Source: Bacteroidota bacterium (GTDB lineage: Bacteria > Bacteroidota > Bacteroidia > AKYH767-A > OLB10). Taken from it: a stretch of DNA of 64,000 nt. Below the pieces are notes generated by a model. That model was not told where the DNA came from, searched no databases, and saw only the letters and a program-made list of their open reading frames with translations. This document shows positions 46,736 to 63,791 of the stretch, one piece after another; positions within the stretch are counted from its first letter, which is position 1, and each line of letters opens with the position of its first letter. The stretch covers positions 117,102 to 181,101 of the forward strand of contig JADKIC010000003.1 in assembly GCA_016721435.1 (NCBI GenBank). The letters are read 5' to 3'. Position numbers and translations under genes: made by a program.

Positions 46736-46738
46736 AAA

Positions 46739-47053: not shown

Positions 47054-47165
47054 CAAAACAGAGCGAAGAAACAGAACCAGAGCGATGTTTCAAGCTCTGT
47101 TTTCCCTGCTCACTCGCACTGTATCCTCGCTCTTAAATAGTATCTTAATTATAAATCCCTTTTCA
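47054..47165 (+). repeat. Copy 1 of about 110-bp direct repeat following tRNA-Leu (copy 2 at 47611-47725; degenerate copy 3 at about 47870-47985)
   Basis: caaaacagagcgaagaaacaga..gctctgttttccctgctcactcgcact..cctcgctcttaaatagtatctta..cccttttcaaa repeated at more than 85% identity. Confidence 0.7.
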
Positions 47166-47230: not shown

Positions 47231-47485
47231 ATGAAATATCACGTATATGCTTTATCAAGCACTGTTAGAAATTATATTTATGTAGGGTTAACAAGTGATT
47301 TAGACCGAAGACTAAGGGATCATCAAAATGGATATAATCCAACTACAAAACCATATAGACCATTTGAATTGATTTTATTGGAAGAACATGAAACCAGGGT
47401 ATTGGCAAGAGAGAGAGAAAAGTATCTTAAAACCAGTGCAGGAAAGAGATGGCTGCGTAGTCATAAAGTAAATATTAAATCATAG
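47231..47485 (+). CDS. GIY-YIG nuclease-family small protein
   Basis: 84 aa; YVYALSS...YIYVGLTSDLDRRLRDHQNG matches the GIY-YIG core; its stop overlaps the start of a partial tRNA-Leu copy. Confidence 0.7.
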   Translation: MKYHVYALSSTVRNYIYVGLTSDLDRRLRDHQNGYNPTTKPYRPFELILLEEHETRVLAREREKYLKTSAGKRWLRSHKVNIKS

Positions 47486-47610
47486 CTGTACGGGCCTGCC
47501 TGACTGCCCACAATGAGAACCAAGAAATTAAAACAAGTATAGATTGGTTGATGTTTATAGTTTTTAAAATAGTCGGCAGGCAGGTTCGACTCCCGTCCCG
47601 GGTACAAAAC
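47484..47610 (+). other. Partial tRNA-Leu 3' copy (variable arm to acceptor end) interrupted in the T-stem by a 91-nt insert
   Basis: AGCTGTACGGG | CCTGCCTGACTGCCC...GTCGGCAGGCAGG | TTCGACTCCCGTCCCGGGTACAAAAC. Insert ends are complementary (CCTGCCTGAC / GTC-GGCAGG) and the flanks reproduce the tRNA-Leu 3' part. Confidence 0.65.
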
Positions 47611-47991
47611 AGAGGGAGAAACAGAGCGAGAGCGAAGTTTTAAGCTCTGTTTTCCCTGCTCACTCGCACTCTTCCCTCGCTCTTAAATAGAATCTTACTA
47701 TACATCGTTTTTCAAACTAATATTATCATGTTTCTATATCTAGTCCTTTGGTCTAAAAAAAATCCCATATTCCAGTCCTGAAAATTCCTTTGCACTGTAG
47801 CTTCTTCTCGATTCATCCTGGTTTCTCAATTCAAAACAATCTTCTACCCATAAAAACCGAGAACGAGTAACAGAACGGAGGAACAGATTGTTAAATACCA
47901 GAAAAGAGTTCCATATTCCCTTTCCTATAATACTATATATTTGCACTTAGATAGTATCTTGCCATAAACCCTTTTTCAAACCTACAATCTT

Positions 47992-48276
47992 ATGTTCCCA
48001 TTCCAAAATCTTGAAGTCTACAAGAAATCCAAATTATTCCATCTTCATTGTAAGGAGATCATCCTTACCCGCAAACTCGATTCCTACGTCAGAGACCAGC
48101 TAGGGCGTGCATCATTCAGTGTTCCATTGAACATCGCCGAAGTAAGGACAGGTCGCGACATGTCACCATCATGGAACGTCCTGTCACCAGTGATGTTCCC
48201 GGTCGTATCGTCGGTATGTAGTGACAGGTCGCGACCTGTCACCAGTGATGTCCCCGGTCGTATCGTCGGTATGTAG
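47992..48276 (+). pseudogene. Four-helix-bundle protein (TIGR02436-type) truncated by palindromic array
   Basis: First about 50 aa (FQNLEVYKKSKLFHLHCKEIILTRKLDSYVRDQLGRASFSVPLNIAE) match the family; the remainder (VRTGRDMSPSW...) is translation of the repeat array. TAtaTTTG -7 box at 47936. Confidence 0.6.
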
Positions 48277-48353
48277 TGGCAGGTCGCGACCTGTCACTAC
48301 GTGATGTCCCCGGTCGTATCGTCGGTAAGTAGTGACAGGTCGCGACCTGTCAC
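48146..48353. repeat. Tandem array A: 3 perfect + 1 degenerate copies of 22-bp palindrome GTGACAGGTCGCGACCTGTCAC separated by near-identical 33-34-bp fillers (period 55-56 bp)
   Basis: Palindromes at 48146 (1 mismatch), 48221, 48276, 48332; fillers cagtgatgtccccggtcgtatcgtcggtatgta differ by 1-3 SNPs. Confidence 0.9.
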
Positions 48354-51300
48354 TACTTTGCCACCATAAACATCCTACTAAAAACGCCCTCTTCCACAGT
48401 CCCTCTCAATATATACGCTCCCTCCGGAAACTGACTCGTGTCTAATCGTATTTCTTTTTGTTGTCCGGTGTTTATTTTTTGGAGTAGTCGTCCCATCATA
48501 TCGTAGAGTGCAAGTTCCGGTACGAATACCGCAGATGGAAGACGGATGATGAGTTCATCTACCGCAGGGTTGGGGAAGAGCTGCAGCATGTTTCCTAATG
48601 TTTCATTCAATCCTACACAACCGGTGATCATGATGCTGTCTCTCGCCATGCAGCCAATGCTATCACGAATCTCTACCCAGTATTGTCCCGGTCCGTTGAT
48701 CACCAAGCTCGTATTGCTGCTGCCGTCCTGCCAGAGATGGGAATAGCCCGGCACACCTTGTAGCGTGTAGGGATATCCACTGCCGCAAATGACAGTATCG
48801 CTGCCGAGTGTAAGTGGGACATTTAACTCCGTCATGCTGATCTGAATGGTGTCGTATGAATCCTGGCAGCCTCCTGTTACATGTAACCAATAGGTGCCCG
48901 GTCCAAATGCAGTGTAGGTCGAAGCAGTGCTTCCATCCTGCCATTCGTAGTTGAGAAAGGTGGTGTTGGGAATGATCGTATAAACATTGCCGGCGCAAAT
49001 CGTAGTGTCTTTACCGATCTCCACATTGCCGTACGTGAATCCTTGTGTGAAGGTGATGGTATCGCTCGCGATACAGCGGTTGGTGTCAACAGCTACGACC
49101 CAATAGGTGCCGATGGTGTTTACGCCATAGCTGGTGAAAGAAGTGCTGTTGTCTTGCCACACAAACGACTGCCAGTTATTGCCAATGGATAAGATAGCGA
49201 AACTGCAAAGGATGGTGTCCGGTCCGAAATCAATCGGTGCTGCCGTGATGGTTTCAACGATAAAGGTATCTATAACGGCACCGCAGTAACCAAAATACTT
49301 CATGGTGAGCGTGTCGATGCTTCCTGCAATGGAGCCCGTTAGTTCAATGGTGCTGTCTGTGGCATTACTCACCGTTCCGGGTCCGTGGTGCATCCAAATG
49401 GTAGAATCGCCCGGTAAGGCATAGGCGACTTCAAATGTTTCCGTGACATTCACACAAATTTTTCGTGGTCCGGATATGCGTGGCGTACTGAGGAGCTCAA
49501 TGCCCTTTACAAAATTCGGCATCGCCCAACCAAACCATAACGGGTTGGGATTATTTAGGAAATCTACAGTATATCCACACGCAGTACCGGCAAGATTGGG
49601 CTGATCAATATAGTCAATATAGAACTGATCTCTTGAAATCCATATGCGTCCATCAGGGCCTAAACTCATGTTGGCAAATTGTTTGGTTGTCGTTCCGGTA
49701 AATGGATCTAAACGGATTTCAGAAGCCAGAATTGCTGCAGGTGTACCCGCGGCCATATTGTACTGAAACACTTTTCCCTGTCGCAAAAGTCCAACATATA
49801 ATTTCGAATTGTCTGGAGAGAATTCAATGCCGTAAGGTGTTTCATTGACTAAAGAACTGTAGGTGATTTCAAACGGATTCGAAGCAATTCCTGTGTTTTT
49901 ATTGAAATCGGCAACACGTACGCGGTTGGGTAAAACGGTTGAGTTGATGCAGTATGCTACCTTGAGCCCGTCATTTGAAAATTTTATTTCTCCGATACCT
50001 CCGTTAAAACCTCCGTTAGCAAATGGGGAAATGACAGGAGTGGTTGCAAGTCCTGCAGCACTGAGTAAATAGGAATAAATCGTATCTCCGTCAAAGGATG
50101 CTGCAGAGATCCAGATGTCAGTGCCGTTGCCATGATACGTGCCTCCTACATGTTCATTGATTTTACTCCGTACCGGAAGATTTTTTTGTCCGGTGATGAC
50201 ATCTCCTAAACCACCATTGAGCGAAAGATCAATCACGCTGTATTTTAAACCTCCTGTATATTGGTTCTCGCCGCAATCTGCTGTGAAGAGATAGTAGAGT
50301 GTAGTGGATCCCGGTTTCGGTGCAAGCAAACATCCTTGTGTAGAGGAATAGCATCCGGCGAGTCCGCTTCCATTGGGCATAGACTGATGATTGCGGTTCC
50401 ATACTGTTAACCCATCGGTGTAAAGCAATAAATTTCCATCGCGATCAGAGAGAGAAGAGGTGCATTCGTCGGCAATACTTTGTCCGGGAACAGCACTATA
50501 GCCGACTACCGGAAAACTTGTACCGGAGAAATGCAGAGAGAAATTCGGCAAATACCAGTTCTCTAACATGCCCGCATCTCCGCAATCTCCAATTTTGAAA
50601 TAGAAGACCTCAGACGTATCGCTGCATTGATTGCTGTTTGCAATGTTATAAATGTAATGACTGCCCGGCGTATTAAATGTCTGTATAAAAGTTTGTATCG
50701 TCCCCTGATTTACACCATCCAGCACCCATTGCGCGGAATTGGAATTGGTGCTGCCGTCGTTAAAATTTAAGGTGCTCCCAATGGCATAAGGTCCGCTGGC
50801 CGGGGCTACAACAAAGAAGGCCTGTGCATCACAAAGTACTTCTACGATTTTTGTAATGCTTTCTTCACACGTAGAATCACTGCTGTTCACAGTTAATGTA
50901 ATCGAATAATAGCCGGGACTGGTAAACACATGCGTTGTATTGGCAGAGGTGGAGATGAGTTGGTTGTTCACATACCATTCATAGGCAATTGCACCGGCTG
51001 AAGCGTCCGAAAAATTTAAACTCCCGCCAATGACAACCACATTATTACTCATGTTGAAGTCAGCAATGATGGGGTTTAGGCAAGTAGGCTGGCAGGAAAC
51101 AGATTGAAGTAAACTTGCCCGTACACCGGTAATTGCAGCTTGCATGCGATCGCTTTGTCCGGTGGTGAAAAGAACTTTGCAACTGTTGAGGCCATAGTCC
51201 ATGTAATTTTCGATGAGATCATTTTGATCTCCTAATCCTCCAACACCAACTGGCCGGAATGGATTGTTGGGGCTTAAATCGTCATCATCGCTGTTGCAGG

Positions 51301-52111
51301 TGTTGGCAGTGAGCGGACATCCTACAGCTCCTGTACTCTGGTCGGGGGGTGTGTCGCAAACTTTATCTCCATCGGTTTGGCAGTTGTTGTTGCCACAAGC
51401 CCCTTCAAAGGTATGATAGAGCCCGAGATAATGTCCCGCTTCATGTATCAATACTTTAGTGGCATCAGGGCTATTGCCAAAATAAGCCGCTTCGTTTACG
51501 ATACCGTCTTCATCATTTCCATGTGATGCCGGTAAATACGCATATCCTGCAACACCACTACCGCCTCCAAGAGATGTAATTGAATTCACTACCCAAATAT
51601 TCAGGTAGTAATTGGGATTCCAACGGATGAGATTCTTTAACGTGTCATCATCATTTTCGGATATCATATCCGTTAGTGTGGATACCACTCTGTTGATGCC
51701 GGTAGTGTAATTTCCGTTTTCATCCTGCGATGCCAGACAAAATTGTATGTTGGTATTTACACCATTACCGGTTTGAAAGGGTCCGGTGTTTGAAAAGGCC
51801 TGATTGAGATACTGTATGGCAGTATTAACTTGCGCGTTTGAAATGTTTTCGGGTCCGTTGTTGTGAATGATATGCACCACTACAGGAATTGTCAGCACAG
51901 TATTGCTTTGCCGGTAAACGGATAATTGTTGGATTTTCTGATAGATATAGTCATTCATTTCCCGCATCCGGTTTCGGTAATCGGGATCACGGGACAGTTT
52001 GGAGTGGCGATGCTCGTCGCTGGAACATCCGGGAAGTGGTGCTATTTGCGGGACTTGTGCCCGGCTAAGGCCGCTGAATAACAGCAGCACGAGTAAGATT
52101 AATTTTTTCAT
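48353..52111 (-). CDS. M43-family (pappalysin/cytophagalysin-like) zinc metalloprotease, multi-domain, with T9SS C-terminal sorting domain
   Basis: 1252 aa; signal peptide; HEAGHYLGLYHTFEG zincin motif; repeated Ig/PKD-like segments; CTD tail LQLFPNPAVDELIIRL...AYILRGTVEEGVFSRMFMVAK. Confidence 0.75.
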   Translation of the reverse strand: MKKLILLVLLLFSGLSRAQVPQIAPLPGCSSDEHRHSKLSRDPDYRNRMREMNDYIYQKIQQLSVYRQSNTVLTIPVVVHIIHNNGPENISNAQVNTAIQYLNQAFSNTGPFQTGNGVNTNIQFCLASQDENGNYTTGINRVVSTLTDMISENDDDTLKNLIRWNPNYYLNIWVVNSITSLGGGSGVAGYAYLPASHGNDEDGIVNEAAYFGNSPDATKVLIHEAGHYLGLYHTFEGACGNNNCQTDGDKVCDTPPDQSTGAVGCPLTANTCNSDDDDLSPNNPFRPVGVGGLGDQNDLIENYMDYGLNSCKVLFTTGQSDRMQAAITGVRASLLQSVSCQPTCLNPIIADFNMSNNVVVIGGSLNFSDASAGAIAYEWYVNNQLISTSANTTHVFTSPGYYSITLTVNSSDSTCEESITKIVEVLCDAQAFFVVAPASGPYAIGSTLNFNDGSTNSNSAQWVLDGVNQGTIQTFIQTFNTPGSHYIYNIANSNQCSDTSEVFYFKIGDCGDAGMLENWYLPNFSLHFSGTSFPVVGYSAVPGQSIADECTSSLSDRDGNLLLYTDGLTVWNRNHQSMPNGSGLAGCYSSTQGCLLAPKPGSTTLYYLFTADCGENQYTGGLKYSVIDLSLNGGLGDVITGQKNLPVRSKINEHVGGTYHGNGTDIWISAASFDGDTIYSYLLSAAGLATTPVISPFANGGFNGGIGEIKFSNDGLKVAYCINSTVLPNRVRVADFNKNTGIASNPFEITYSSLVNETPYGIEFSPDNSKLYVGLLRQGKVFQYNMAAGTPAAILASEIRLDPFTGTTTKQFANMSLGPDGRIWISRDQFYIDYIDQPNLAGTACGYTVDFLNNPNPLWFGWAMPNFVKGIELLSTPRISGPRKICVNVTETFEVAYALPGDSTIWMHHGPGTVSNATDSTIELTGSIAGSIDTLTMKYFGYCGAVIDTFIVETITAAPIDFGPDTILCSFAILSIGNNWQSFVWQDNSTSFTSYGVNTIGTYWVVAVDTNRCIASDTITFTQGFTYGNVEIGKDTTICAGNVYTIIPNTTFLNYEWQDGSTASTYTAFGPGTYWLHVTGGCQDSYDTIQISMTELNVPLTLGSDTVICGSGYPYTLQGVPGYSHLWQDGSSNTSLVINGPGQYWVEIRDSIGCMARDSIMITGCVGLNETLGNMLQLFPNPAVDELIIRLPSAVFVPELALYDMMGRLLQKINTGQQKEIRLDTSQFPEGAYILRGTVEEGVFSRMFMVAK

Positions 52112-52304
52112 AGGGATGGATAAATTGCGTGGTTAATAGAGGGTTAAGATATAAATATTTATTTGAATTGTTGAAAAGACACTGAAAATCATTGAAAAAA
52201 TGACATGTTTTGGATGATTATAGAGATAAATTAAACAAGTCATGGGGTGCATTGTTTACCTTTGTGGGCACGTTGGATGGCTGTCGGCTGACCGTGCAAA
52301 AACT

Positions 52305-52799
52305 ATGTTGGATAAAATCAATCTCCCTAAACCCGTCTGGATCGTTTTCGGTTTCCTTTTCACAGGACTGGGCATTGCCGGTTTTATCTTGCCGATGATG
52401 CCGGGATTGGTGTTTTTTATTTTGGCGAGTTTTTGTTTTGCGAAAAGTTCCCCGCGCATGCTGCGTAAAATTTTAGCACATCCTCAGATAGGTCCACAAA
52501 TTATGGATTGGAAAAGAGGAAGGGGGATGCGCATGAAGACAAAAGTTCTGGCCATTTTACTCGTAACCATCAGTCTCTCGTTCAGTGCCATATTTATGGT
52601 GAAGTTGGTGTGGGTGAAATGGATTATTTTTTTCTCCATATTCGCAATCACTGCTTATATTTTATCTGTTAAAACAAGAAAGAGTAAACCCGCAATAGTA
52701 CCTATACCTCAATCCACTGAATATGGCTCCGTCAAATCCCTTGAAAACACTAAGGAAGTTCACCACTCCTCTCAAGTCTCCACTCAGAGGGGGAAATGA
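52305..52799 (+). CDS. DUF454/YbaN-family inner-membrane protein
   Basis: MLDKINLPKPVWIVFGFLFTGLGIAGFILPMMPGLVFFILASFCFAKSSPRMLRKIL conserved core; start set to ATG 52305. Confidence 0.6.
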   Translation: MLDKINLPKPVWIVFGFLFTGLGIAGFILPMMPGLVFFILASFCFAKSSPRMLRKILAHPQIGPQIMDWKRGRGMRMKTKVLAILLVTISLSFSAIFMVKLVWVKWIIFFSIFAITAYILSVKTRKSKPAIVPIPQSTEYGSVKSLENTKEVHHSSQVSTQRGK

Positions 52800-52821
52800 T
52801 TCCGATGTCGGCGAAGTGTTA

Positions 52822-53631
52822 ATGCTCGTCGCATCATATGATAAGAAGAATCTTTTAGTAAGTGAAGAAAAGTATGACCTGAACGGTGAATTGGAAGAAG
52901 TACATACGTTCAATTACGATGATCGCGGAAATCTCATCGAACATATTTTTGAAATTCCTTCCGATAATATCAGCGAGCGTTTTCTGACTACCCGTAACGG
53001 GGATGGATATCCGTTAATGATTATAAAGTATTATGGTGAAGATCCCGGTGAGAAAACGGAATATACCTACGGTACCCATGCGCAACCAGTAAAAATTCAT
53101 CGCTACGATGCGGATGGTGAATTTGAAGCGGAGGAAGATTTGCTGTATGATGATCAGTCTAGATTGATGAGCAGAAAAATTAATTCACCGGCAGAGGGTA
53201 ACCGGGAGTTTCGTTTTAGTTACGATGAAAAGGGGAATCTGGCCGGTGAAGAAGAATACGATAAAGATGGTAAGTTGGTGGCGAGTGTGAAGCTGGATTA
53301 CGATGAGGAAGGGAAGGAGACAATAGTGGCGAAGTTTAACGGTGAAGGAAAGTTGATTTCACGTCAGCTTTCAGAGTATGATGAATTGGGAAGATTGAAA
53401 CGGAAGGTGTCCAATGGTTTTTATACGCGGGTGAGCGATTACGAGTACGATGAACTGGGACGCGTGACGGAAGAAGCTTTGTCGGATGGTAATGGATTTG
53501 TGATTTCACGGAACCGCATGGCGTACGACGATGGTGGTCGCTTATTAGAGGAAACCGTATACGAAACGGATTTAACACGCGCCGGGCGAGATACACATCT
53601 CTCCAGCCGCTATGAATATGAATTTTTTTAA
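52822..53631 (+). CDS. RHS/YD-repeat-containing protein (short, no signal peptide)
   Basis: About 12 copies of xYxYDxxGxL motif at 20-22-aa spacing (SEYDELGRLKRK, YEYDELGRVTEE, AYDDGGRLLEE). Confidence 0.5.
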   Translation: MLVASYDKKNLLVSEEKYDLNGELEEVHTFNYDDRGNLIEHIFEIPSDNISERFLTTRNGDGYPLMIIKYYGEDPGEKTEYTYGTHAQPVKIHRYDADGEFEAEEDLLYDDQSRLMSRKINSPAEGNREFRFSYDEKGNLAGEEEYDKDGKLVASVKLDYDEEGKETIVAKFNGEGKLISRQLSEYDELGRLKRKVSNGFYTRVSDYEYDELGRVTEEALSDGNGFVISRNRMAYDDGGRLLEETVYETDLTRAGRDTHLSSRYEYEFF

Positions 53632-53686
53632 TAGGATAAAACTTCCTGTTCAACAGGTTGTTCTATCCATGTAATAGAAAAAGAGA

Positions 53687-55636
53687 ATGGCATATAAAAA
53701 TCTGCAACATTTTATTAAGGTGCTTGAAGCAGCAGGCGAGTTGGTGCGTATTCGTGAATATGTGAGTCCGAAGTTGGAGATTACGGAAATCGCTGACCGT
53801 ATTTCCAAACAATATGGTCCCGCATTGTTATTCGAGAACACAGGTTATGATTTTCCGGTGTTGATCAATTCCATGGGGACAGAGAAGCGGATGGCGATGG
53901 CACTTGGAGTGGAAAAATTGGATGATGTGGCCGCGGAGATTGAACAACTTTTTAAAACGATGACGGGGCCTAAGCATTCATTTTTGGATAAGTTGAAAAT
54001 GCTTCCTCAATTGGGAGAAATTGCCTCCTGGATGCCGAAGGAAGTGAGTGGGAGAGGAGCCTGTCAGGAAGTAGCGATGAAGGATCCGGATATTACCAAA
54101 TTGCCTGTATTGACGTGCTGGCCGGAAGATGGGGGTCCCTTTGTCACCTTGCCCGTCATCCAAACCCGCGACCCGCATACCGGTATTCGCAATGTAGGTC
54201 TTTATCGGATGCAGGTCTTTGAACCCACCATGACCGGTATGCATTGGCACCGGCATAAAGTATCCGCTCGTCATTTTAATGAATATAAAAAGCTTGGACA
54301 GCGTATGCCCGTTGCCGTTACTATCGGCGGAGATCCGGCCTATACTTATTCCGCCACGGCTCCCTTGCCCGATGGTGTGGATGAATTCATGTTGGCGGGA
54401 TTTCTTCGGAAGAAGCGCGTGGAGCTGGTAAAATGTCTGACGATTGATATGCATGTTCCTGCAGATGCAGATTTTGTCATTGAGGGCTATGTGGATCCGA
54501 ACGAAGAGTTTATTCTTGAAGGTCCCTTTGGTGATCATACGGGCTATTATTCCCTCGCGGATTATTATCCCCGTTTCCATATAACGGCTATCACTTACCG
54601 AAAAGATCCTGTCTATCTCTGTACCATTGTGGGGATCCCGCCTCAGGAAGATGCCTGGATCGGAAAAGCCACCGAACGCATTTTTCTGGCGCCGATAAAG
54701 ATGACGATGGTTCCGGAGATTGTGGACATGGTTCTACCTGTAGAAGGTGTGTTTCATAATCTAGTGATTGTTAAGATCAGAAAAGATTATCCCGGTCAGG
54801 CGCTGAAGGTGATGAATTCGCTCTGGGGTGCCGGCCAAATGATGTTTACCAAAATGATGGTGATTGTGGATGGTGATGTGAATATTCACAATCAGGTGGA
54901 AGTGGCGCAGTATATCGCCAATCATGTGGATCCGTTGCGCGACATTACTTTTTCTCAAGGACCTACAGATGTACTCGATCATAGTTGTTCACGTATGGCT
55001 TTCGGTGGAAAGATGGGCGTGGATGCAACTGCGAAGCTGGAAGAGGAAACATTGCCCGGTGCACTTTCTGACAAAGTAATTATCGGAGAATTAAATAAAT
55101 CTGTTCCTGCTATTTTGGAAGCATCTAAAATGTATTCTGAAATCAGGGAAGTAAATAGTTCATTGCTGGATATCGGCGTACCATTGGTGTTTGTTTCCAT
55201 AGAAAAGAATCGCAAAGGTCATGTAAAGGAGCTCGCCGGAAAATTACTGGAGATGGACGCGTTTCGTTTAGTGAAGGTGCTGATCTTTCTTGAACATACC
55301 ATGGACATTGCTGATGTGGCCGATGCCGTCTGGCGTTTCTCCAATAACTTCGACCCTAAACGCGACCACTTTAATTTCCCTGCCGGTAAACAGGGAGAAG
55401 TGAATCATATCGCTTTCGACGGCACACGTAAATTGAAAGAATTTGACGGTTTTGATCGCGATTGGCCTAATATTTTAGCTTCCGATGAAACAACTATGAA
55501 TCGTATAGATGCTATTTGGTCGAAGCTGGGTTTGGGTCCAATGATTCCTTCGCCCTCCCGAAAGTACAGTCGGCAGTTGTATGCAGGTGGTGCTGTTGCT
55601 GATCCGGAAGCGTTAAGTAATCCGGTTGCAGAATAG
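53687..55636 (+). CDS. UbiD-family (prenylated-FMN-dependent) decarboxylase, extended C-terminus
   Basis: N-terminus LQHFIKVLEAAGELVRIREYVSPKLEITEIADR...GPALLFEN typical of UbiD/menaquinone-biosynthesis decarboxylases. Confidence 0.75.
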   Translation: MAYKNLQHFIKVLEAAGELVRIREYVSPKLEITEIADRISKQYGPALLFENTGYDFPVLINSMGTEKRMAMALGVEKLDDVAAEIEQLFKTMTGPKHSFLDKLKMLPQLGEIASWMPKEVSGRGACQEVAMKDPDITKLPVLTCWPEDGGPFVTLPVIQTRDPHTGIRNVGLYRMQVFEPTMTGMHWHRHKVSARHFNEYKKLGQRMPVAVTIGGDPAYTYSATAPLPDGVDEFMLAGFLRKKRVELVKCLTIDMHVPADADFVIEGYVDPNEEFILEGPFGDHTGYYSLADYYPRFHITAITYRKDPVYLCTIVGIPPQEDAWIGKATERIFLAPIKMTMVPEIVDMVLPVEGVFHNLVIVKIRKDYPGQALKVMNSLWGAGQMMFTKMMVIVDGDVNIHNQVEVAQYIANHVDPLRDITFSQGPTDVLDHSCSRMAFGGKMGVDATAKLEEETLPGALSDKVIIGELNKSVPAILEASKMYSEIREVNSSLLDIGVPLVFVSIEKNRKGHVKELAGKLLEMDAFRLVKVLIFLEHTMDIADVADAVWRFSNNFDPKRDHFNFPAGKQGEVNHIAFDGTRKLKEFDGFDRDWPNILASDETTMNRIDAIWSKLGLGPMIPSPSRKYSRQLYAGGAVADPEALSNPVAE

Positions 55637-55759
55637 TATTAAAGGGAAAAAAGGTGTTGTAAGTATTTAACGTTTTTTGTTCTTTAAGAAATTGACTTTT
55701 GTAAGGTCTTTGCTTAGTTCAGCTTTTTTATACCTCTTCCGCAAACGAAATTTGTTTTC

Positions 55760-56623
55760 GTGAAAGGGATCCTTTATCTGTTACTGATTGTTGCGCTCAG
55801 TTGCTCCTCCTGTGAAAAGGAATCGGAGATCATCTCCGGCAATGTAGCACCTTCTGATCCTACGGTTTCATCGGTGCAGATCAGGCAATATGTACAAAAA
55901 GTCTATCTGGCGATCATTGGCACCGTTCCTTCCGATACGGATATGGTCAATGAGATTAATTTTCTGGCAAGGAATAATTGCTCGGTGAATGATCGTTCAA
56001 ATTTATTGGATCGCCTGTTTGCAAATCCCTTATATAAGACCAGTCAGTATGTATCAAAAAATGATCTGCTGCTGGAAGCCATTACATCTTCAGAAATTAA
56101 TGATATCATCGATGATATTCAGGATGACTTAAATAGTACAAGTACGATTGATACAGCCATTCTGAATCGTCAACTCTTTGCCATGCAACAATTGCAGACG
56201 GCTAAGCTGGATTATATCAACGGAACAATAAATCTGGCGGAAGTGCAGCGTCGGATGACAGCCTCTGTGGCCTTCACCTATGCCAATGGTTATGGAGATG
56301 CCTGGATCGAAGCGGTGTTTGGCTTCTTCCTCTTTCGTTTACCCACTTTGGATGAATTGGATCAGTCCGGTACGATGCTGGAAGGTTTCCCTGCTTATCT
56401 TTTTCTGCAGACCGGTGCATCAAAGGAAGATTTTATTCAGATATTTTTCTCTTCCCGTCCTTTCAAAGAAGGCCAGGTGAGAGCATTGTTCAGAGAGCAT
56501 CTCTATCGTGAACCCAATACTTCAGAGTTGATGAATTATACAAACAGTTTCAGTAATACGATGGATCATAAATTACTGATGCGTCAAATATTCTTAACCA
56601 ATGAATTCCTGCGTGGTGAATAA
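55760..56623 (+). CDS. Hypothetical lipoprotein
   Basis: GTG start, lipobox LSCSSC; no known domain. Confidence 0.4.
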   Translation: MKGILYLLLIVALSCSSCEKESEIISGNVAPSDPTVSSVQIRQYVQKVYLAIIGTVPSDTDMVNEINFLARNNCSVNDRSNLLDRLFANPLYKTSQYVSKNDLLLEAITSSEINDIIDDIQDDLNSTSTIDTAILNRQLFAMQQLQTAKLDYINGTINLAEVQRRMTASVAFTYANGYGDAWIEAVFGFFLFRLPTLDELDQSGTMLEGFPAYLFLQTGASKEDFIQIFFSSRPFKEGQVRALFREHLYREPNTSELMNYTNSFSNTMDHKLLMRQIFLTNEFLRGE

Positions 56624-56633
56624 ATTCAGAAAT

Positions 56634-57101
56634 ATGTTGTTCCTCCTCCTTGCCGCAAGTTTCACAGCCTGCATGGAACCGGAACCGATCTATGAGGTGG
56701 AACCCATTCTCGTGGAAGTCCAGGGTGGTCAAAAGAAGGCCGTTAAAACAGATCGTCAGTTTGTTTCCGGTGCTTTTGCCGATGTCATGAAGAAGCAGAT
56801 TACTACCTCTGAATTGGATGAGGCCATTTATTGCTATGATGCCAATAGTGATAAGGAAATGATACGCGATATGATCATCCGTGATTTGCTGAAGCGTACT
56901 GCAGCCGTCATTCCATCTGTATCAGAGATGCGCAGTGACCCTGAGAAATTTGTAGGAGATACCTACCGTCGTTTCTATAAAAGAGATCCCTCTGATCTGG
57001 AACGATGGACGGTGCAGAATCAGTTGGCACAGGATACATCAATAAGTCCGGTGATGGTATTTTATGTGTTTATGAGTGCTGAAGAATATAGTTATTTCTA
57101 A
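56634..57101 (+). CDS. Hypothetical lipoprotein
   Basis: MLFLLLAASFTAC lipobox signal. Confidence 0.4.
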   Translation: MLFLLLAASFTACMEPEPIYEVEPILVEVQGGQKKAVKTDRQFVSGAFADVMKKQITTSELDEAIYCYDANSDKEMIRDMIIRDLLKRTAAVIPSVSEMRSDPEKFVGDTYRRFYKRDPSDLERWTVQNQLAQDTSISPVMVFYVFMSAEEYSYF

Positions 57102-57109
57102 ATAAAGAT

Positions 57110-58414
57110 ATGAATCGTAGAAAATTTGTAAAGTCATTGGGTCTGTCAGCCGCAGGTGCGTTTGCAGTGCCGTATATATTGCCTTCCGGTCGACTCTTTG
57201 CCGCCACCGGTACCCGCCTCGCGAACCATGTCGTGCTCTGTCTCTATGCAGGTGGGGTCAGAAACCTGGAGTCTATCGATAAAGCGGAAGGAAATCTGAT
57301 GCCGAATATCCTTCGCGGAACAGAATCCATCTCTCCGGATATCCTTCCCGGCTTTGATCCTGTTCCTGCGCCGGTACTGGCAACGCCATTGTAGGATTAT
57401 GGTACTTTGTTCAAAGGGTTTCGCTATGCGAATATTTCTCCCGGACATTATCAGGGACATTTTACGGCTATCACCGGCCGTTATACCGGATATGATATTA
57501 ATTTCAATCAACCGGCTGCGTATCCGACCTTGTTCGAGTATTACCGTAAACACAATAGCCCTTCCAATTCCGCCTTGAATGCCTGGTGGGTGTCGGATCA
57601 TATAGGGGAGAATGAAAATCTCGCCTATAGCATCAGTCCCGATTATGGCGCTCAATACGGTGCCAATTTTTTTAGTCCGTTGAGTGTTTTTACGAGTGGG
57701 AATTATAAACCCATTGACTTGTGTCGTTCGTTCACTACCACCGAAAGACAGAAGATGGGTACCATGCTTGATTTTCTGAATCGTTCATTTGTAGAACCTG
57801 TCCTTCAAGAAGTCCCTATGGTGCGGAATACTGAACAGGATCGTATAGCTATACAGAGTTTTTATGGAAATCTCGCCACACGTCAAAAGAACAATCAACT
57901 CTGGGATCCCTGGCAGATTGGTACAGGGATGAATAGCGATATGTTCAATATGTTCTTCGCTGAGGAAATTATAAAGGAGTTTTCCCCCGAACTAACGGTG
58001 GTGAATATGACCGGTGTGGATGCAGGTCATTCGAATTTCACGGAGTATTGCAATAATATGCGTAAAGCGGATTATGCTGTTGGCCGCTTGTGGAATACCA
58101 TCCAGCAAACTCCCGGTATGGTGAATGATACCGTACTTATTGTTGTTCCTGAAATAGGTCGCAATACACAGCATAATTCTATTCGTGATGCTTACGAACG
58201 CTATGGTCTGGATCATTCTGATACGATGTCGCGCGAAATATTTTGTCTCGTGGCAGGCCCTGCCGGAAAGGTGGTGCAAAATAATGTGATTACAAATGTG
58301 ACCGGTGAGAGTATAGATATTGTTCCAACCATTGCACATGTACTTGGATTCCATCCCGACATTCCGCAAGGATATCTTCCGGGAAGTCCCTTGTATCAGG
58401 CATTCACCAGCTAA
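57110..58414 (+). pseudogene. DUF1501-like (sulfatase/alkaline-phosphatase superfamily) Tat-secreted protein with in-frame TAG at 57393-57395
   Basis: Twin-arginine signal MNRRKFVKSLGLSAAGAFA; ORFs 57110-57394 and 57407-58414 are in the same frame, separated only by an amber codon. Confidence 0.5.
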
Positions 58415-58422
58415 GAAGAAAG

Positions 58423-59306
58423 ATGCAAACGATGAAAATATATTTGGTGGTCGCGATGATGGCATTGGTGGTATGTTCCTGCAGTAAGGAAGAAAATCCG
58501 TTTCCTGCCGAAGTGTCGGACGATGGTGGCTCAGTTTCAAACCCTGATCCGAATAGTATCTCCGGCTTGCATAAAAATATTTTTGCTCCCCGATGTGCGG
58601 TCCCCAGTTGTCATGGCGGTACCTTTGAACCGGATTTCAGAACAGTGGAATCCACCTACTACACGCTCGTATATCAGCCGGTAGTGAAGAATACCATCAA
58701 TGAAAAATATACCTACAGAGTTGTACCGCGTGATACCGGAAAATCATGGTTGTATCATCGCGTCACCAGGCATGATTCATTGATTCCGCGTATGCCGATT
58801 TATATGGATGCGTTGAGTACAGAAGATCTCGGTCATATAAAAACATGGATATTGAACGGTGCACCGGATGCAAGAGGTGTATTGCCTGTGCTGGCGAATT
58901 TACCTCCAAAAGTGGCAGGATATAACGCGTATGATGCTTCCTTTAACCGCATCGATGTTTTGCGGTCCAGTTGGAGTGTGGCTTTTCCTGCTCCCTACGG
59001 ACAACAAATTAATTTCTGGGTGTTTGTCGATGATGAGGAAACAGAGGATAAAAACTATTGTTAAATCAAATGAAATTTAGTCTTGATCCAAATGATTTTT
59101 CAAATGCGGTTTCTGCCAATGCGACCTGGGTGAATGGTCCCGTTTGCTGGGGATGGGTGGTAAGTGTGAACACCGGACAATTTCCTGCGGGATCAAAAGT
59201 GTTTATGCGGTACTATATCAAAGATCCCATCCTGAATCAGGTGTTTGAAATGCCGAAGAATACTTCCTATTCTTATTATAAAACAAATTTCTCGTTCCAG
59301 CTATGA
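58423..59306 (+). pseudogene. Hypothetical lipoprotein with C-x4-CH motif, frameshift near 59060
   Basis: Lipobox VVCSCS; PRCAVPSCHGG motif; C-terminal 82-aa ORF 59058-59306 overlaps in +1 frame. Confidence 0.35.
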
Positions 59307-59737
59307 ACAGAATCCTGTTCTTCCTGCTGCTGATGGCAGTCCTTTCTTCCTGTAAAAAAGAAGAGTCGCCTTTTTCAGAAGTGCCGCGCATTGAAGTGCG
59401 TTCTATTTATCCGGATAGCGTGAAAGCGTTTACCGACAGTATTGTGGTAGAGATTTATTACGAAGATGGTGATGGAGACCTCGGTGAAAATAGTCCCTTT
59501 ACGCAGAATTTATTTCTGGTGGATCAACGCAATCAATTGCAGTTCGGATTTCGAATCGGTAGAATTGCCGCTGAAGGAACACCCGCTATCCGCGGAACGA
59601 TGAAAGTAGTGTTGCCCTATACAAATCTTGTAAACAATGCCGGTCCTGAACAATTATTTTACAAAGTGAGGGTGGTCGATAGAGATGGTAATACTAGTAA
59701 TACAGAAAATACAGGCTCCATTGTTGTCGTAGAATAA
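59303..59737 (+). CDS. Hypothetical lipoprotein
   Basis: MNRILFFLLLMAVLSSC lipobox. Confidence 0.4.
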   Translation: MNRILFFLLLMAVLSSCKKEESPFSEVPRIEVRSIYPDSVKAFTDSIVVEIYYEDGDGDLGENSPFTQNLFLVDQRNQLQFGFRIGRIAAEGTPAIRGTMKVVLPYTNLVNNAGPEQLFYKVRVVDRDGNTSNTENTGSIVVVE

Positions 59738-59740
59738 AAA

Positions 59741-60871
59741 TCAGGGAATACTTAGCCAGCTTTGAATAGGGTAGTGGTCGCTGAGTTTTCCGTTCTTCAC
59801 CCGAAAGGAATGCGTTTGAATATTTGGACTATGTAGTATGTAGTCGATTCTGAAATTGATGGGAAGTTTAATATAGGTGCTTCCAAATCCTTCTCCTTTT
59901 TCTATAAACGAATCGTCTAAATCATTTTTTAAGGTTTGATAAGTGTATGAAAATGGTGTATCGTTAAAATCTCCACAAAGAATAATCGGGTAGGGGCAAG
60001 CAGCCATATGTAATTTCAGTTCATCTACCTGTTGACTTCTCTTAATGGCGGCTTTCTTTATTCTCCTCAATATATTTTTCGTGTTTTTGAGTTTGTTGTT
60101 ATTGCTTTCCAGCGAATCAGGATATTCCAGAAATTCATACTCTTCCTGTTTAAAATGATTAGATTGAAAATGCGCATTGTAAACGCGAACCGTTTTGTTG
60201 TTGATATCAAGATCAGAATAAATACAGAAATTGGACTTCCCTTCTTCATAAAAGACAGTCCCTTCATCAAGAATCGGAAATTTACTGAAAGTCGCTAAAC
60301 CCCAATGACTGGTTTTACGAAGAGTGATACTGTACTTGATCGTTCCGAAATTGGCATTGATGAGTTTTTTTATGGTATCGTTATTTTGAAAATTACCTTT
60401 ATCATCATGAAAATATTCCTGAATGCAAAGAATGTCCGGCTGCTCTTGTTTGAAGAATTTGAAGATGGACGCTCTTGTTTCCAGGTTGCCGGTCCAGTTG
60501 TATAAATCAAAAAGCCGTACATTATAGGAGAGCACTTTGAATGCATTTTTCGGTTGCATGACTTCTACCTTGAACAAACCGGGCCGGTACAGTTGACTGC
60601 ATTTATCATGGCCGATGAGTATCACTGCCGCAGAGAGAAAGGCGAGACGACTTTTTCTGCTTGTCCAGAACATGACAAAAAGTAGGTTGATGAGTAACAG
60701 AACCGGAAAGGTATTGGATAAAGGCTGTAAAATCCAGAGTTTCTCGGGACTGATCCGCATCGCTGTCTGACAACAGAGTAAAAGCAAAGCCACGAAGAGG
60801 TTGATACTAAAAATAAGTTTTAACCAGATATTTCTATCCTTCTTCTCATTTTTAGTAGTTCTTTCATCCAT
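59741..60871 (-). CDS. Endonuclease/exonuclease/phosphatase (EEP) family membrane protein
   Basis: N-terminal TM helices, then LSYNVRLFD...ILCIQEYF...GDFNDTP...SDHYPI EEP motifs; ATG 60871 (ORF-track GTG start at 60892). Confidence 0.7.
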   Translation of the reverse strand: MDERTTKNEKKDRNIWLKLIFSINLFVALLLLCCQTAMRISPEKLWILQPLSNTFPVLLLINLLFVMFWTSRKSRLAFLSAAVILIGHDKCSQLYRPGLFKVEVMQPKNAFKVLSYNVRLFDLYNWTGNLETRASIFKFFKQEQPDILCIQEYFHDDKGNFQNNDTIKKLINANFGTIKYSITLRKTSHWGLATFSKFPILDEGTVFYEEGKSNFCIYSDLDINNKTVRVYNAHFQSNHFKQEEYEFLEYPDSLESNNNKLKNTKNILRRIKKAAIKRSQQVDELKLHMAACPYPIILCGDFNDTPFSYTYQTLKNDLDDSFIEKGEGFGSTYIKLPINFRIDYILHSPNIQTHSFRVKNGKLSDHYPIQSWLSIP

Positions 60872-60954
60872 TTTTGAGTAAAATATTTTCACGATAAAGT
60901 AAAATAAAATTATCCATAATTAATCCATATGCAGATGCATTACCTTTGCAAAAT

Positions 60955-61794
60955 ATGAACAATCTGAAACTTGGTTTCTCCTCCTGTCCGAACGACACTT
61001 TTATTTTTGAGGCGCTTGTTAACAATCGTTTAGGAAGTTCTTTAATTGTGGATCCGGTGATCATGGATGTGGAAGCCCTGAACAGACTGGCAGAAAATGC
61101 TCATCTCGAAGTGTCGAAAATGAGTTTCGCCGCCTTTCCTGCTGTTTCGGCTAACTATCAGATACTTTCTTCCGGCAGCGCTCTTGGTCGTGGTTGTGGT
61201 CCCTTGATTGTTAGTAAGGAACCGATTGATATGTCGAATCTTACTTCAATGGAAATTGCCATTCCCGGAAAAAATACAACAGCGAACTTGCTCTTGAGTA
61301 TTTTCTTTCCTCAACTGACCCTGAAAACGGAAGTTTTATTTTCTGAAATTGAAGATAAAGTACTTAGCGGCGAATTTCCTCTCGGACTAATTATTCATGA
61401 AAGCCGGTTTACCTATGCCGAAAAGGGTTTGCATAAAGTGGCCGATCTGGGGGAACTTTGGGAGCAGCGATACGGGTTGCCAATTCCTTTGGGGTGTATA
61501 GCAGTCAAAAGAAACATGCCGGAAGCGGAAAAGATGGAAGTTCAAAGTCTGGTTCGGCAAAGTGTGGAATGGGCTTTCCGTCATCCCGAAGATTCCGTCG
61601 AATATGTTGGTAAACATGCTTCGGAGATGAGCAGGGAAGTGCAGAATATGCATATCGGATTATATGTGAATAATTTTTCTTTAGATTTGGGCGAGGAAGG
61701 CAAGCAGGCCATTCGCATGATGTTCAAACTGGGCCACGACTCCGGTTTCTTCCCGGAAGCAATGGAGCCAATATTTATTAATGATTTAATTTGA
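60955..61794 (+). CDS. mqnD: 1,4-dihydroxy-6-naphthoate synthase (futalosine-pathway MqnD; MqnA/MqnD family)
   Basis: LKLGFSSCPNDTFIFEAL N-terminal motif characteristic of MqnD; ATG 60955. Confidence 0.65.
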   Translation: MNNLKLGFSSCPNDTFIFEALVNNRLGSSLIVDPVIMDVEALNRLAENAHLEVSKMSFAAFPAVSANYQILSSGSALGRGCGPLIVSKEPIDMSNLTSMEIAIPGKNTTANLLLSIFFPQLTLKTEVLFSEIEDKVLSGEFPLGLIIHESRFTYAEKGLHKVADLGELWEQRYGLPIPLGCIAVKRNMPEAEKMEVQSLVRQSVEWAFRHPEDSVEYVGKHASEMSREVQNMHIGLYVNNFSLDLGEEGKQAIRMMFKLGHDSGFFPEAMEPIFINDLI

Positions 61795-61798
61795 GAAT

Positions 61799-62763
61799 AT
61801 GATAGTTGTAACCGGCGCAGATGGTTTCATAGGTAGTTGCTTAACCGGCAGATTAAATGAACTGGGACATGAGGATCTGATTCTTGTGGATGAATTTCAT
61901 ACTCCTGCAAAGGAAAAAAATCTGTTGGGGAAGAAGTTTGAGAAAAAAATTCATAGAGATGCTTTTCCGGAATGGCTGGCTGAAAATTTCAAGGATGTAG
62001 ATTTTATTTTTCATATTGGTGCCCGCACAGATACCACCGAGTTCGACATGGAAATATTTAACCGGTTGAATCTTTTTTACTCGCAAAGTATCTGGAATAT
62101 TTGCAGCGATCATGGAATACCATTGGTGTATGCCTCCTCTGCAGCAACATATGGAGAAGGTGAATTTGGCTACGACGATGATGTTGCCGGAGTGCCGCGC
62201 TTACAACCCTTGAATCCCTATGGTTGGTCGAAACAGTATTTCGATTGCTGGGCCCTGGAGCAGAAGAAACAGCCTCCGCAATGGGCGGGATTGAAGTTTT
62301 TTAATGTGTATGGCCCCAATGAATTTCACAAAGGAAGAATGGCTTCCGTCATTTTTCATGCGTTTAATCAAATCAAGGAAAATGGGAAGGTGAAGTTATT
62401 CCGATCGCATCGTACCGATTATAAAGATGGTTGGCAACTACGCGATTTTATCTATGTTAAAGATGTGATGAAGTATGCATCTTCCTCATGAAAAATAAGG
62501 TGCCCTCGTCCATTTATAACCTGGGTACCGGAAAAGCCAGATCCTTCTTTGATCTTGCGTCCGCTACTTTTAATGCTTTGAATGTTGAACCAAATATTGA
62601 GTTTATCGATATCCCTGCCGATATTCGCGACAAGTACCAGTATTTTACGGAAGCGAAGATGCAAAAGTTGATAAATGCCGGATATAATAAACCCTTTACT
62701 TCGTTGGAAGAAGGTGTAAATGACTATGTGAAAAATTATCTTTCTACAGCTAAATACTATTAA
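61799..62763 (+). pseudogene. hldD: ADP-L-glycero-D-manno-heptose-6-epimerase, frameshift near 62490
   Basis: MIVVTGADGFIGS Rossmann start, YxxxK region, C-terminal 91-aa ORF 62488-62763 continues in +1 frame. Confidence 0.75.
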
Positions 62764-62772
62764 CCGGAAGGA

Positions 62773-63204
62773 ATGCAAGCATTGAAGCCACTCTTGAAAT
62801 CGAAAATAATTCGCTATTTAATTTCTGCCGGATTAGCCACCTGGGTGGATGTGGTGGTGTACTTCGTTTCTTTTAATTATTTGTATAAAAAAGAGGACAT
62901 CGATATTTTTGGCTTCTATACCGTTTCCGCACCTACCGCCTCATTGATCCTGAGTTATACCATCGGACTCCTGACAAATTTTACCCTCACAAAATTTCTG
63001 GTCTTTAAAGAATCAGAATTGGAAACCCATAAGCAATTGTTCCGTTATGTGATGGTCGCCATCCTGGTCCTCATCCTGAATTATTTCTTAATGAGTTTCC
63101 TCATCCGTCAATTGGAATGGTATCCTACATTGGCCCGGGCCGTGTCAGCGGTGAGCATCGGCGTTTTGAGTTTTGTGGTACACAAATCGTTTTCATTTAG
63201 GTAG
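62773..63204 (+). CDS. GtrA-family polysaccharide-synthesis membrane protein
   Basis: 143 aa, 4 TM helices, GtrA-like N-terminus (IRYLISAGLATWVDVVVYF). Confidence 0.65.
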   Translation: MQALKPLLKSKIIRYLISAGLATWVDVVVYFVSFNYLYKKEDIDIFGFYTVSAPTASLILSYTIGLLTNFTLTKFLVFKESELETHKQLFRYVMVAILVLILNYFLMSFLIRQLEWYPTLARAVSAVSIGVLSFVVHKSFSFR

Positions 63205-63446
63205 TGACAGGTCGCGACCTGTCATCATTAACAAAACGATCATAGATTACATCACAGTGACAGGTCGCGACCTGTCATCATTAACAAAACGATCATAGTT
63301 TACATCATGGTGACAGGTCGCGACCTGTCATCTTTAACAAAACGATCATAGTTTACATCACAGTGACAGGTCGCGACCTGTCATCTTTAACAAAACGATC
63401 ATAGTTTACATCACGGTGACAGGTCGCGACCTGTCACTACCTGTCA
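63204..63446. repeat. Tandem array B: 5 copies of the same 22-bp palindrome (GTGACAGGTCGCGACCTGTCA[T/C]) at exact 53-bp period with near-identical 31-bp fillers
   Basis: Palindromes at 63204, 63257, 63310, 63363, 63416; fillers cattaacaaaacgatcatagtttacatcaca with 1-3 SNPs; first palindrome overlaps the gtrA stop codon, and only about 7 nt separate the array end from the merR stop. Confidence 0.9.
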
Positions 63447-63791
63447 TCACAACTGAGCCTTTAATTCCTCTAAAAATTTTCTGGTACGAAGTAAAGTTTC
63501 CTTGATCTCTACATCTCTCGCCAGGGTATCTCCTTTTTGCTCGAGCATCTTTTTCGCTCCTTCTAAGGTATAGCCCTTTTCTTTTACCAAATGAAAAATG
63601 ACACGCAGATTGGCAACATCTTCTGCAGTAAATAAACGGTTGCCTTTTTTATTTTTCTTGGGCTTTAATATATCGAATTCCTTCTCCCAGAATCTGATCA
63701 GCGAGGCATTGACCTGGAATAGCTCTGCCACATCTCCGATAGGATAGTACAGCCGCTCAGGTTCTTTGTCGAAATCTATTATTGGTGCCAT
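63447..63791 (-). CDS. MerR-family transcriptional regulator
   Basis: N-terminal HTH (YYPIGDVAELFQVNASLIRFWEKEF) and coiled-coil C-terminus. Confidence 0.75.
   Translation of the reverse strand: MAPIIDFDKEPERLYYPIGDVAELFQVNASLIRFWEKEFDILKPKKNKKGNRLFTAEDVANLRVIFHLVKEKGYTLEGAKKMLEQKGDTLARDVEIKETLLRTRKFLEELKAQL

Follow-up and report, generated by a model that had tools for sequence, protein, structure and literature searches.

Two arrays of one palindrome, each lying where two genes converge, raise the question of what these repeats are and whether they delimit a gene block that can invert or be excised. Both occur in a stretch of 64,000 nucleotides (nt) of DNA, hereafter the window, from an uncultured Bacteroidota lineage. 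We conclude that both arrays are very probably clusters of one double-foot GTAG REP, the cognate of RAYT (TnpA_REP) subclass 2.4/group 4, that has been tandemly copied in two old junctions. The link to RAYT was established in other genomes, and the window itself contributes nine copies at two loci in 64 kb.

Palindrome arrays and the gene ends they occupy

The repeat unit in both arrays is GTAG-TGACAGGTCGCGACCTGTCA-CTAC, a 28-nt hairpin with a stem of 12 to 13 bp and GTAG/CTAC feet, whose core of 20 to 22 nt is perfectly palindromic in seven of the nine copies. When the window was searched with the 18-mer GACAGGTCGCGACCTGTC at up to 3 mismatches, nine matches were obtained (seven exact and two with one mismatch), all of them confined to the two arrays, and dinucleotide-preserving shuffles yielded none. 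No further copy was found in roughly 60 kb of additional sequence from this species. Array A (48142-48356, no strand assigned) consists of four double-foot REPs, A1 to A4, at 48142-48168, 48218-48244, 48273-48300, and 48329-48356, with a linker of 27 to 33 nt and a period of 55 to 56 nt; the first unit is degenerate and is spaced 76 nt from the second. GTAG feet are present on A2 to A4 and CTAC feet on A3 and A4, while A1 carries GTAA. Array B (63201-63449, likewise unstranded) consists of five copies, B1 to B5, at 63201-63227, 63254-63280, 63307-63333, 63360-63386, and 63413-63440, with a period of 53 nt and a partial extra arm, CCTGTCATCA, 3′ of the last copy (63440-63449). Its units are 94 to 96% alike, linkers included, and canonical feet occur at the outer ends only (GTAG on the left of B1 and CTAC on the right of B5), the inner copies showing ACAG, ATGG, or ACGG on the left and TCAT on the right. 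These inner copies are duplication products, not independent insertions. Throughout the arrays, a single symmetric REP and a single linker are repeated head to tail. The same architecture of array A was found in an independent assembly, GCA_963852085.1 (locus L204), which is 98.9% identical to the window, so array A is no assembly artifact.

Both arrays were previously placed, by a sequence-only reading of the window, on the stop codons of convergent (3′-3′) junctions, and the stops read directly from the sequence bear this out, together with the finer overlaps claimed for them. Array A does start inside a four-helix-bundle ORF: the 5′ half of this gene (PF05635/TIGR02436; 47992-48141, plus strand) is cut between ...GCCGAAG and TAAGGACAGG, the start point of the array, and a mechanical ORF (47992-48276) continues from there into the array. 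Only residues 5 to 50 of that ORF match PF05635 (profile positions 1 to 48 of 106), and the match stops at the array A start; the ORF is a truncated four-helix-bundle remnant. On the other side, the gene for an M43 metalloprotease with a T9SS C-terminal sorting domain (48353-52111, minus strand; Pfam) ends at the ancestral position, with its TAG (48355-48353) lying within the CTAC foot of the last array A REP (28-nt element, 48329-48356); the 1-nt overlap reported for this stop holds for the 22-nt core.

At the second junction, the gtrA gene (62773-63204, plus strand; Pfam GtrA) overlaps the first array B palindrome as claimed, its TAG (63202-63204) being the TAG of the GTAG foot of that copy, and its protein is 3 to 8 residues shorter than palindrome-free orthologues. 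The merR-family gene (63447-63791, minus strand; Pfam MerR) has its ancestral TGA stop (63447-63449) inside the partial REP arm, 6 nt past the last CTAC foot, where about 7 nt had been estimated.

A REP family linked to RAYT genes in other genomes

The exact 20-mer core is present in at least 99 loci from many phyla, including Bacteroidota, Acidobacteriota, Aminicenantes, Patescibacteria, Gammaproteobacteria, Chrysiogenota, Spirochaetota, Fibrobacterota, and Bacillota, where it mostly occurs singly. Among 102 core copies, 72 carry the GTAG foot, 73 the CTAC foot, and 59 (about 58%) both. The family is located mainly just downstream of genes: around 104 copies, 106 of 208 sides have an ORF of at least 100 amino acids that ends no more than 300 nt away, and an offset of 0 is the commonest single ORF-end offset. 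A Y1 HUH transposase is encoded in 11 of the 99 loci (each at most 8 kb long), and in most of these 11, palindrome copies lie both inside the gene, in frame, and beside it. The transposase matches Pfam Y1_Tnp above threshold and the NCBIfam model "REP-associated tyrosine transposase" with 57 bits, below the curated cut-off of 80. The associated proteins carry the motifs NH[IVL]H, WQ, and YIxNNP. Sequence searches of solved structures gave no match to RAYT, and the palindrome string had no match in the literature text searched or in viral contigs.

These features agree with RAYT subclass 2.4, whose signature, in the available text of Quentin et al. 2018 (PMC6006769), comprises NH[IFV]H, WQ, YIxNNP, a double foot, and an in-gene REP, and whose members are placed there in Bacteroidetes and scattered other phyla. 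According to the available parts of that work and of Bertels et al. 2017, the REPs of subclass 2.4/group 4 share the long hairpin and have GT[AG]G 5′ and C[TC]AC 3′ feet; they flank the transposase gene and sit in frame between its HuH and Y motifs, as does the present palindrome in other genomes. The short hairpin and both feet are thus found in the window, and the association with RAYT is found elsewhere. Unlike subclass 2.4 loci, the 64-kb window contains no RAYT gene, and its REPs are arrayed regularly head to tail.

With a period of 53 to 55 nt and a repeat of 22 to 28 nt, the arrays resemble at first glance a degenerate or orphan CRISPR in which a palindromic repeat alternates with spacers some 30 nt long, and automatic tools could mistake them for one. 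However, the "spacers" within one array are 94 to 96% identical copies of each other, no cas gene or domain was found among the ORFs examined, and the palindrome elsewhere is mostly solitary and linked to RAYT, which leaves this reading with practically no probability. An array of MerR operators was also considered and dropped, since the palindromes lie at the 3′ end of merR, are found across phyla, and are tied to RAYT genes.

How, then, do the arrays compare with known REP clusters? The BIMEs of E. coli are intergenic REP clusters with short conserved linkers and variable copy number, and the same can be said of the arrays described here. BIMEs, however, bind IHF or gyrase and are built of two types of REP that alternate in opposite orientations, whereas the present arrays repeat one symmetric REP with its linker; an assignment to E. 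coli-type BIMEs was rejected for lack of the alternating two REPs. REPINs (Bertels and Rainey 2011) likewise form a symmetric hairpin unit headed by GTAG at either end, but each consists of two separate REPs with a spacer between them, and they have been characterized as vertically inherited and specific to a lineage, in contrast to a core that is shared across phyla. The GTAG super-family (Di Nocera et al. 2013, PMC3733652) shares with the arrays the tag, the location downstream of genes, termini that contribute the TAG stop of the neighboring ORF, a preference for convergent or unidirectional junctions, and tandem clusters that include flanking DNA. The GTAG REPs of that survey came from Proteobacteria, Cyanobacteria, Chloroflexi, and the PVC group and not from Bacteroidetes, and in most of its families a single tag is present and unpaired; in the present element, each end bears a tag and the two tags pair. 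The kind of REP, the TAG-supplying ends, and the tandem clusters are already known, and the two arrays are a further example.

The 14.8-kb block and the IS110 element

The two arrays bracket 14.8 kb, exactly as had been stated, and of the genes listed in between, Pfam recovered M43, DUF454, RHS/YD, UbiD, EEP, MqnD, an epimerase, and GtrA; DUF1501 was not found. Pfam also confirmed MerR and an IS110 transposase in the window. From this arrangement, the sequence-only reading had suggested that the arrays are inverted-repeat borders of an invertible or excisable segment, which we now consider highly improbable. Judged by the 7 to 12 nt beside the symmetric core, arrays A and B are indeed oppositely oriented, with GTGATGT 3′ of the core on the plus strand in array A and on the minus strand in array B, a weak form of inverted borders. 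Yet the 98.9% relative (L204) is collinear with the window on the array A side and over about 10.9 kb of the block, and in contigs of about 95% identity, drawn from about ten metagenome samples, both junctions occur in the window's order and orientation. Neither an alternative orientation nor an empty site was seen in related contigs, a comparison outside which minority variants within a population fall. Inverted arms of up to 30 nt are 83 to 90% complementary, and the identical palindromes of 20 to 28 nt could serve as a recombination substrate, but when the larger ORFs of the block and those flanking it were searched against Pfam, several had no hit of any kind and none showed an integrase, invertase, or resolvase domain, and the genes of the block include ones of housekeeping type (UbiD, MqnD, and epimerase).

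More distant genomes pointed in the same direction. In a relative whose M43 is 75% identical, the block is retained and M43 is not followed by a palindrome, and distant relatives keep the gene order alaS-M23-merR> <gtrA-epimerase-mqnD-EEP-UbiD. The merR/gtrA junction and its downstream genes are conserved; 80 more distant loci with MerR orthologues share the junction, and the palindrome is present there in 0 of the 80; in two of the palindrome-free loci (L120 and L124), the spacer is 22 to 38 nt long. Homologues of M43 with about 52% identity are found in unrelated gene contexts and are therefore uninformative on junction A. The synteny comparison proposed along with the mobile-segment idea thus returned a collinear block and palindrome-free distant junctions, the outcome that the reading itself had named as speaking against it. 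Taken together, this comparison of related sequences indicates that the 14.8-kb block is most probably ordinary, vertically inherited chromosome between two neighboring REP clusters. The lesson is that inverted palindrome arrays around genes do not make a gene block mobile or invertible.

Some IS110 relatives insert into REPs. Since an IS110-family element (PF01548 and PF02371) is present at about 10943-12419, the palindromes were also proposed to be its target sites, as REPs are for IS621 in E. coli. This, too, has only a slight chance of being correct: no palindrome lies near the element in the window even when up to 3 mismatches are allowed, and none was found at up to 4 mismatches in 1.5 to 7 kb of sequence around the IS copies in two insertion contexts (one in the window and L116; the other in L115, with its downstream flank shared by L117). 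The upstream IS flank carries GAATTGATGAAT-type repeats instead in both contexts. Thus, no IS copy adjoins a palindrome in either context, and the proposed check spoke against the claim.

Origin and consequences of the clusters

Comparison of close relatives revealed that the clusters themselves are variable. Junction B is 155, 208, 219, or 242 nt long in strains 95 to 97% identical to the window, and the array B linker is present as a single copy in a 95% relative (37 of 39 nt identical); exact-protein searches for junction B in the 98.9% relative gave no match. Junction A in a 95% relative (L110) holds an intact four-helix-bundle gene of 114 amino acids along with other palindromes, and the window shares the truncated gene with its 98.9% relative. 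In one lineage, half of the four-helix-bundle gene appears to have been lost through a deletion with its end point in array A, and REP arrival at the merR/gtrA junction is lineage-specific. A search for the source of the array A linker yielded no more than a 14-nt match, inversely oriented, in the 95% relative; a micro-inversion of the linker was considered and dropped, this match being too weak.

The same comparison bears on whether the arrays are selected mainly as RNA-level elements, acting as bidirectional terminators or as 3′-end stabilizers, a reading that is compatible with a REP origin and that we regard as unlikely. The arrays begin at stop codons and form very stable hairpin stacks on both strands (z = -15 and -8 versus shuffles), and RNA roles of REPs have been proposed (PMC3733652). 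However, neither strand of either array contains a T-run or any terminator-like site, in contrast to a genuine hairpin plus T-run terminator elsewhere in the window (46735-46762), and the arrays are therefore not classical intrinsic terminators. The earlier description of REP-type elements at 3′-3′ junctions stands, and its bidirectional-terminator part does not. Moreover, the window has about eight further convergent junctions that lack a palindrome, and palindrome-free relatives cope with their 22- to 38-nt spacers. Array copy number and arrangement vary freely among near-identical strains, which argues against a tuned function. Putative effects of the hairpins on flanking mRNAs, such as 3′-end protection or interference with translation termination, are possible.

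For the REP clusters favored here, we propose that REP copies entered two old, very short convergent spacers in this uncultured Bacteroidota lineage. By analogy with characterized RAYT/REP systems, entry would have been mediated by a Y1 HUH transposase acting on the single-stranded hairpin. Since each foot contains a TAG, insertion of a copy at a gene end or just within it would replace or supply the stop codon. Local remodeling of the clusters would then have followed, with REP-plus-linker units being tandemly duplicated, deleted, and converted, events that may have given rise to the regular 53-nt and 55-nt arrays and to the deletion of the four-helix-bundle 3′ half.

One further aspect extends beyond this locus. 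The transposases associated with the core are 33 to 76% identical and read the embedded REP in two different frames, and an identical 20-nt core across many phyla was not found in the available parts of Quentin et al. 2018 and Bertels et al. 2017. We tentatively suggest, as a possibility somewhat short of even, that one base-identical 20-nt REP is common to RAYT subclass 2.4 systems of many phyla, with the transposases having meanwhile diverged. This base-exact spread is the sole aspect that may merit a dedicated survey. If true, either the hairpin would be under unusually strict constraint at the DNA level or these systems would have passed repeatedly from one phylum to another, in contrast to the REPIN-RAYT systems studied so far, which are lineage-specific and vertically inherited.

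For the organism itself, the two arrays document the short-distance behavior of REP clusters in an uncultured Bacteroidota lineage: they supply stops, shorten gtrA by a few codons, and mark the end point of a gene-destroying deletion, and their copy number shifts between strains that are 95 to 99% identical. If the core is indeed so widely shared, the clusters in this species would be active hot spots at which gene 3′ ends are remodeled.

Two palindrome arrays at convergent gene ends

The 18-mer GACAGGTCGCGACCTGTC was found nine times in the 64-kb window at up to three mismatches (seven exact copies and two with one mismatch) and zero times in shuffled sequence. All nine copies are confined to two tandem arrays flanking a 14.8-kb gene block. 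In array A (48142-48356), four copies recur every 55-56 nt, with a degenerate first unit 76 nt from the next; in array B (63201-63440), five copies recur every 53 nt, and the units, linkers included, are 94-96% alike. The complete element reads 5'-GTAG TGACAGGTCGCGACCTGTCA CTAC-3'.

The sequence-only reading had placed the arrays on stop codons at convergent gene ends, and this was borne out by direct reading of the sequence. The M43 protease gene (minus strand) ends in a TAG (48355-48353) inside the CTAC foot of array A's final copy, gtrA ends in a TAG (63202-63204) supplied by the GTAG foot of array B's first copy, and the merR TGA (63447-63449) falls 6 nt past the last foot, within a partial extra arm, CCTGTCATCA. 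Array A does start inside the four-helix-bundle ORF, as had been claimed, but that ORF is the first half of the gene only: its residues 5-50 match positions 1-48 of the 106 in profile PF05635, and the match stops exactly where array A begins. Pfam agreed with the earlier gene calls for the block, except that "DUF1501" was not confirmed.

A double-foot GTAG REP and its transposases

When a one-genome-per-species collection was searched with the exact 20-nt core of the palindrome, at least 99 loci were retrieved. Among the matches listed, hosts include Bacteroidota, Acidobacteria, Aminicenantes, several candidate-phyla-radiation lineages, Gammaproteobacteria, Chrysiogenales, Spirochaetia, Fibrobacter, Bacillota, and others. 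Conservation beyond the core in these copies is limited to the feet, with GTAG present in 72, CTAC in 73, and both in 59 of the 102 copies among the matches listed. A homologue of a 172-aa protein is encoded at 11 of the 99 core loci among the matches listed, each locus spanning at most 8 kb. This protein matches Pfam Y1_Tnp above threshold and, against the NCBIfam model "REP-associated tyrosine transposase", reaches 57 bits, short of the cut-off of 80; motifs NH[IVL]H, WQ, and YIxNNP are present in its homologues.

According to PMC6006769, TnpA_REP subclass 2.4, equivalent to RAYT group 4, is associated with "double foot" REPs carrying 5' GT[AG]G and 3' C[TC]AC, includes transposase genes with in-frame inserted REPs, and occurs in Cyanobacteria, Bacteroidetes, and various other phyla. 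The palindrome and its linked transposases in other genomes fit this description. GTAG-tagged REPs are further reported, in PMC3733652, to reside chiefly between convergent and unidirectional ORFs and to form large clusters of tandem units copied along with flanking DNA. In a sample of 104 palindrome copies, ends of ORFs of at least 100 aa lie within 300 nt on 106 of the 208 sides, and the commonest single offset is 0, i.e., the stop codon is the TAG of the foot. We conclude that each array is a cluster of a double-foot GTAG REP from an already described REP-RAYT family. Five head-to-tail copies recurring every 48-49 nt in another genome (L084, ~7170-7390) show that regular arrays of this REP are not peculiar to the window.

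The palindrome-linked transposases are only 33-76% identical, and the REP embedded in their genes is read in two different frames, as VTGRDLSL in one set of loci (L061, L057, L041, and L072) and as SDRSRPVT in the other (L066, L077, and L093). These two translations indicate that conservation acts at the DNA level and that the embedded copies are probably of more than one origin. The passages of PMC6006769 and PMC3733652 consulted hold no statement on a base-exact cross-phylum REP core; the persistence of one such core across many phyla, despite diverged transposases, is mildly unusual and possibly already known.

In 11 of the 102 copies among the matches listed (L001, L007, L014, L036, L045, L076, L094, and others), the hairpin extends at least 10 perfectly paired bases past the core, in locus-specific stems of up to 20 bp. 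At L045, a T-run follows the outer stem, as though the REP occupied the loop of a terminator. Such stems could reflect either REP insertion into hairpin tips or outward growth of the palindrome by template switching.

Terminators, the IS110-family element, and other features

Arrays A and B are predicted to form very stable hairpin stacks on either strand (z = -15 and -8), but no T-run follows the hairpins in either array. They thus differ from a perfect 11-bp hairpin directly after tRNA-Gly (46735-46762), which has A6 at one flank and T6 at the opposite flank and is a textbook bidirectional intrinsic terminator of the classical hairpin-plus-T type; a bidirectional terminator role for the arrays, proposed from sequence, is therefore unsupported. 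About eight convergent junctions elsewhere in the window are palindrome-free. A putative RNA-level effect of the arrays on flanking genes is possible, and a tuned role is disfavored because the arrays vary freely between strains.

The IS110-family element of the window (~10943-12419) has copies in two insertion contexts, one represented by the window and L116 and the other by L115, which shares its downstream flank with L117. At up to four mismatches, no palindrome was detected in the 1.5-7 kb of sequence examined, and the upstream flank carries GAATTGATGAAT-type repeats in both. ATTCATCA is repeated 4.5 times at 12427-12462, adjoining the upstream end of the window copy, and the GAATTGATGAAT motif adjoins the second copy in its unrelated context (L115, 2550-2630). 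These repeats may be the IS target or a portion of the IS end. The suggestion that the palindromes serve as IS110 target sites found no support, since neither context contains one.

Several further features were observed. The window has two copies (47032-47147 and 47583-47697, 90-97% identity) of a segment made up of the tRNA-Leu(taa) 3' end and ~80 nt downstream, with a small GIY-YIG nuclease ORF (47231-47485) between them; the 95% relative (L110) carries one copy and lacks the GIY-YIG gene, whereas the 98.9% relative (L204) has the insertion. This arrangement looks like a small element inserted beside the tRNA gene. Three genes that relatives have intact (321, 434, and 293 aa) are each broken into two ORFs here (61799-62763, 57110-58414, and 58423-59306), which suggests indel errors of long-read assembly or recent pseudogenes. 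An M-box (magnesium) riboswitch scoring 147.7 bits (minus strand, 7636-7803) precedes the ORF at 6155-7534.

Age of the junctions and turnover of the arrays

The 14.8-kb block had been likened to an invertible or excisable segment. L204 (GCA_963852085.1), an independent assembly with 98.9% identity to the window over 13.6 kb, carries both array A and the truncated four-helix-bundle gene as in the window, and its coverage, the array A side plus ~10.9 kb of the block, is collinear. Metagenome contigs from about 10 samples (~95% identity) likewise keep gene order and orientation (mutS, tRNAs, four-helix-bundle gene, M43, block, gtrA, merR, M23, and alaS). A relative with a 75% identical M43 protein has kept the block, and the palindrome is absent from the 434 nt after its M43 gene. 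At 80 metagenome loci with MerR orthologues (54-72% identity), alaS, M23, and merR in many cases converge on gtrA, epimerase, mqnD, EEP, and UbiD; the palindrome is at the merR/gtrA junction in none of the 80, and 22-38 nt separate the two stop codons in the shortest-spacer loci. Pfam revealed no recombinase domain inside or adjoining the block. For the consensus assemblies compared, the collinear relatives and the lack of a recombinase domain rule out the block as a unit; collinear blocks and palindrome-free relatives are the very outcome that the sequence-only reading had set against its proposal. By these comparisons, both gene junctions are old and the palindromes are later arrivals, in this lineage only.

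C-termini were then set against palindrome-free orthologues. The merR and M43 stops are at the ancestral position, with the REP starting at the stop or directly behind it; the M43 gene of the 95% relative takes its stop, TAA, from a copy with a GTAA foot. The gtrA protein is 3-8 residues shorter than its palindrome-free orthologues; the REP sits within the former 3' end of the gene, and the TAG now used comes from its foot. Since the ancestral spacer measured only 20-40 nt and each foot contains a TAG, exact stop-codon overlap is expected for such elements.

At junction B (gtrA/merR), no two strains seen are alike: lengths are 155, 208, 219, or 242 nt, with 3-5 recognizable palindromes, half-arms, and 1-4 linker copies. 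The 95% relative has just one copy of the window's array B linker, identical at 37 of 39 positions, so the 5 x 53-nt array stems from local tandem amplification of REP plus linker and not from five separate insertions; amplification likewise accounts for the footless inner copies. The junction in a remoter relative (L119, 8865-9304) contains a 405-bp unrelated insert lying between direct repeats, 35 nt long, of the merR 3' end, and it seems to be a magnet for differing kinds of insertion. In some strains (L201, 3052-3990; L202, 2988-3926), a Bro-N domain gene lies between merR and the M23 peptidase gene; it is absent in the window.

The 95% relative has an intact four-helix-bundle gene (114 aa) at junction A, together with ~280 nt of unique sequence, three main-family palindromes, and one palindrome of a second GTAG family. 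The latter, GTAGCCGCGTTACATGTAACGCGGCTAC, lies among the main-family palindromes (L110, ~14140-14200), so the species has more than one REP type. Relative to this strain, the window is missing ~570 nt of junction A, with ...GCCGAAG in the gene joined to TAAGGACAGG... in a palindrome. The length variation at junction B and the deletion at junction A indicate that the REP clusters here are hot spots of duplication and deletion, which could arise by slipped-strand mispairing, unequal exchange, or template switching at hairpins.
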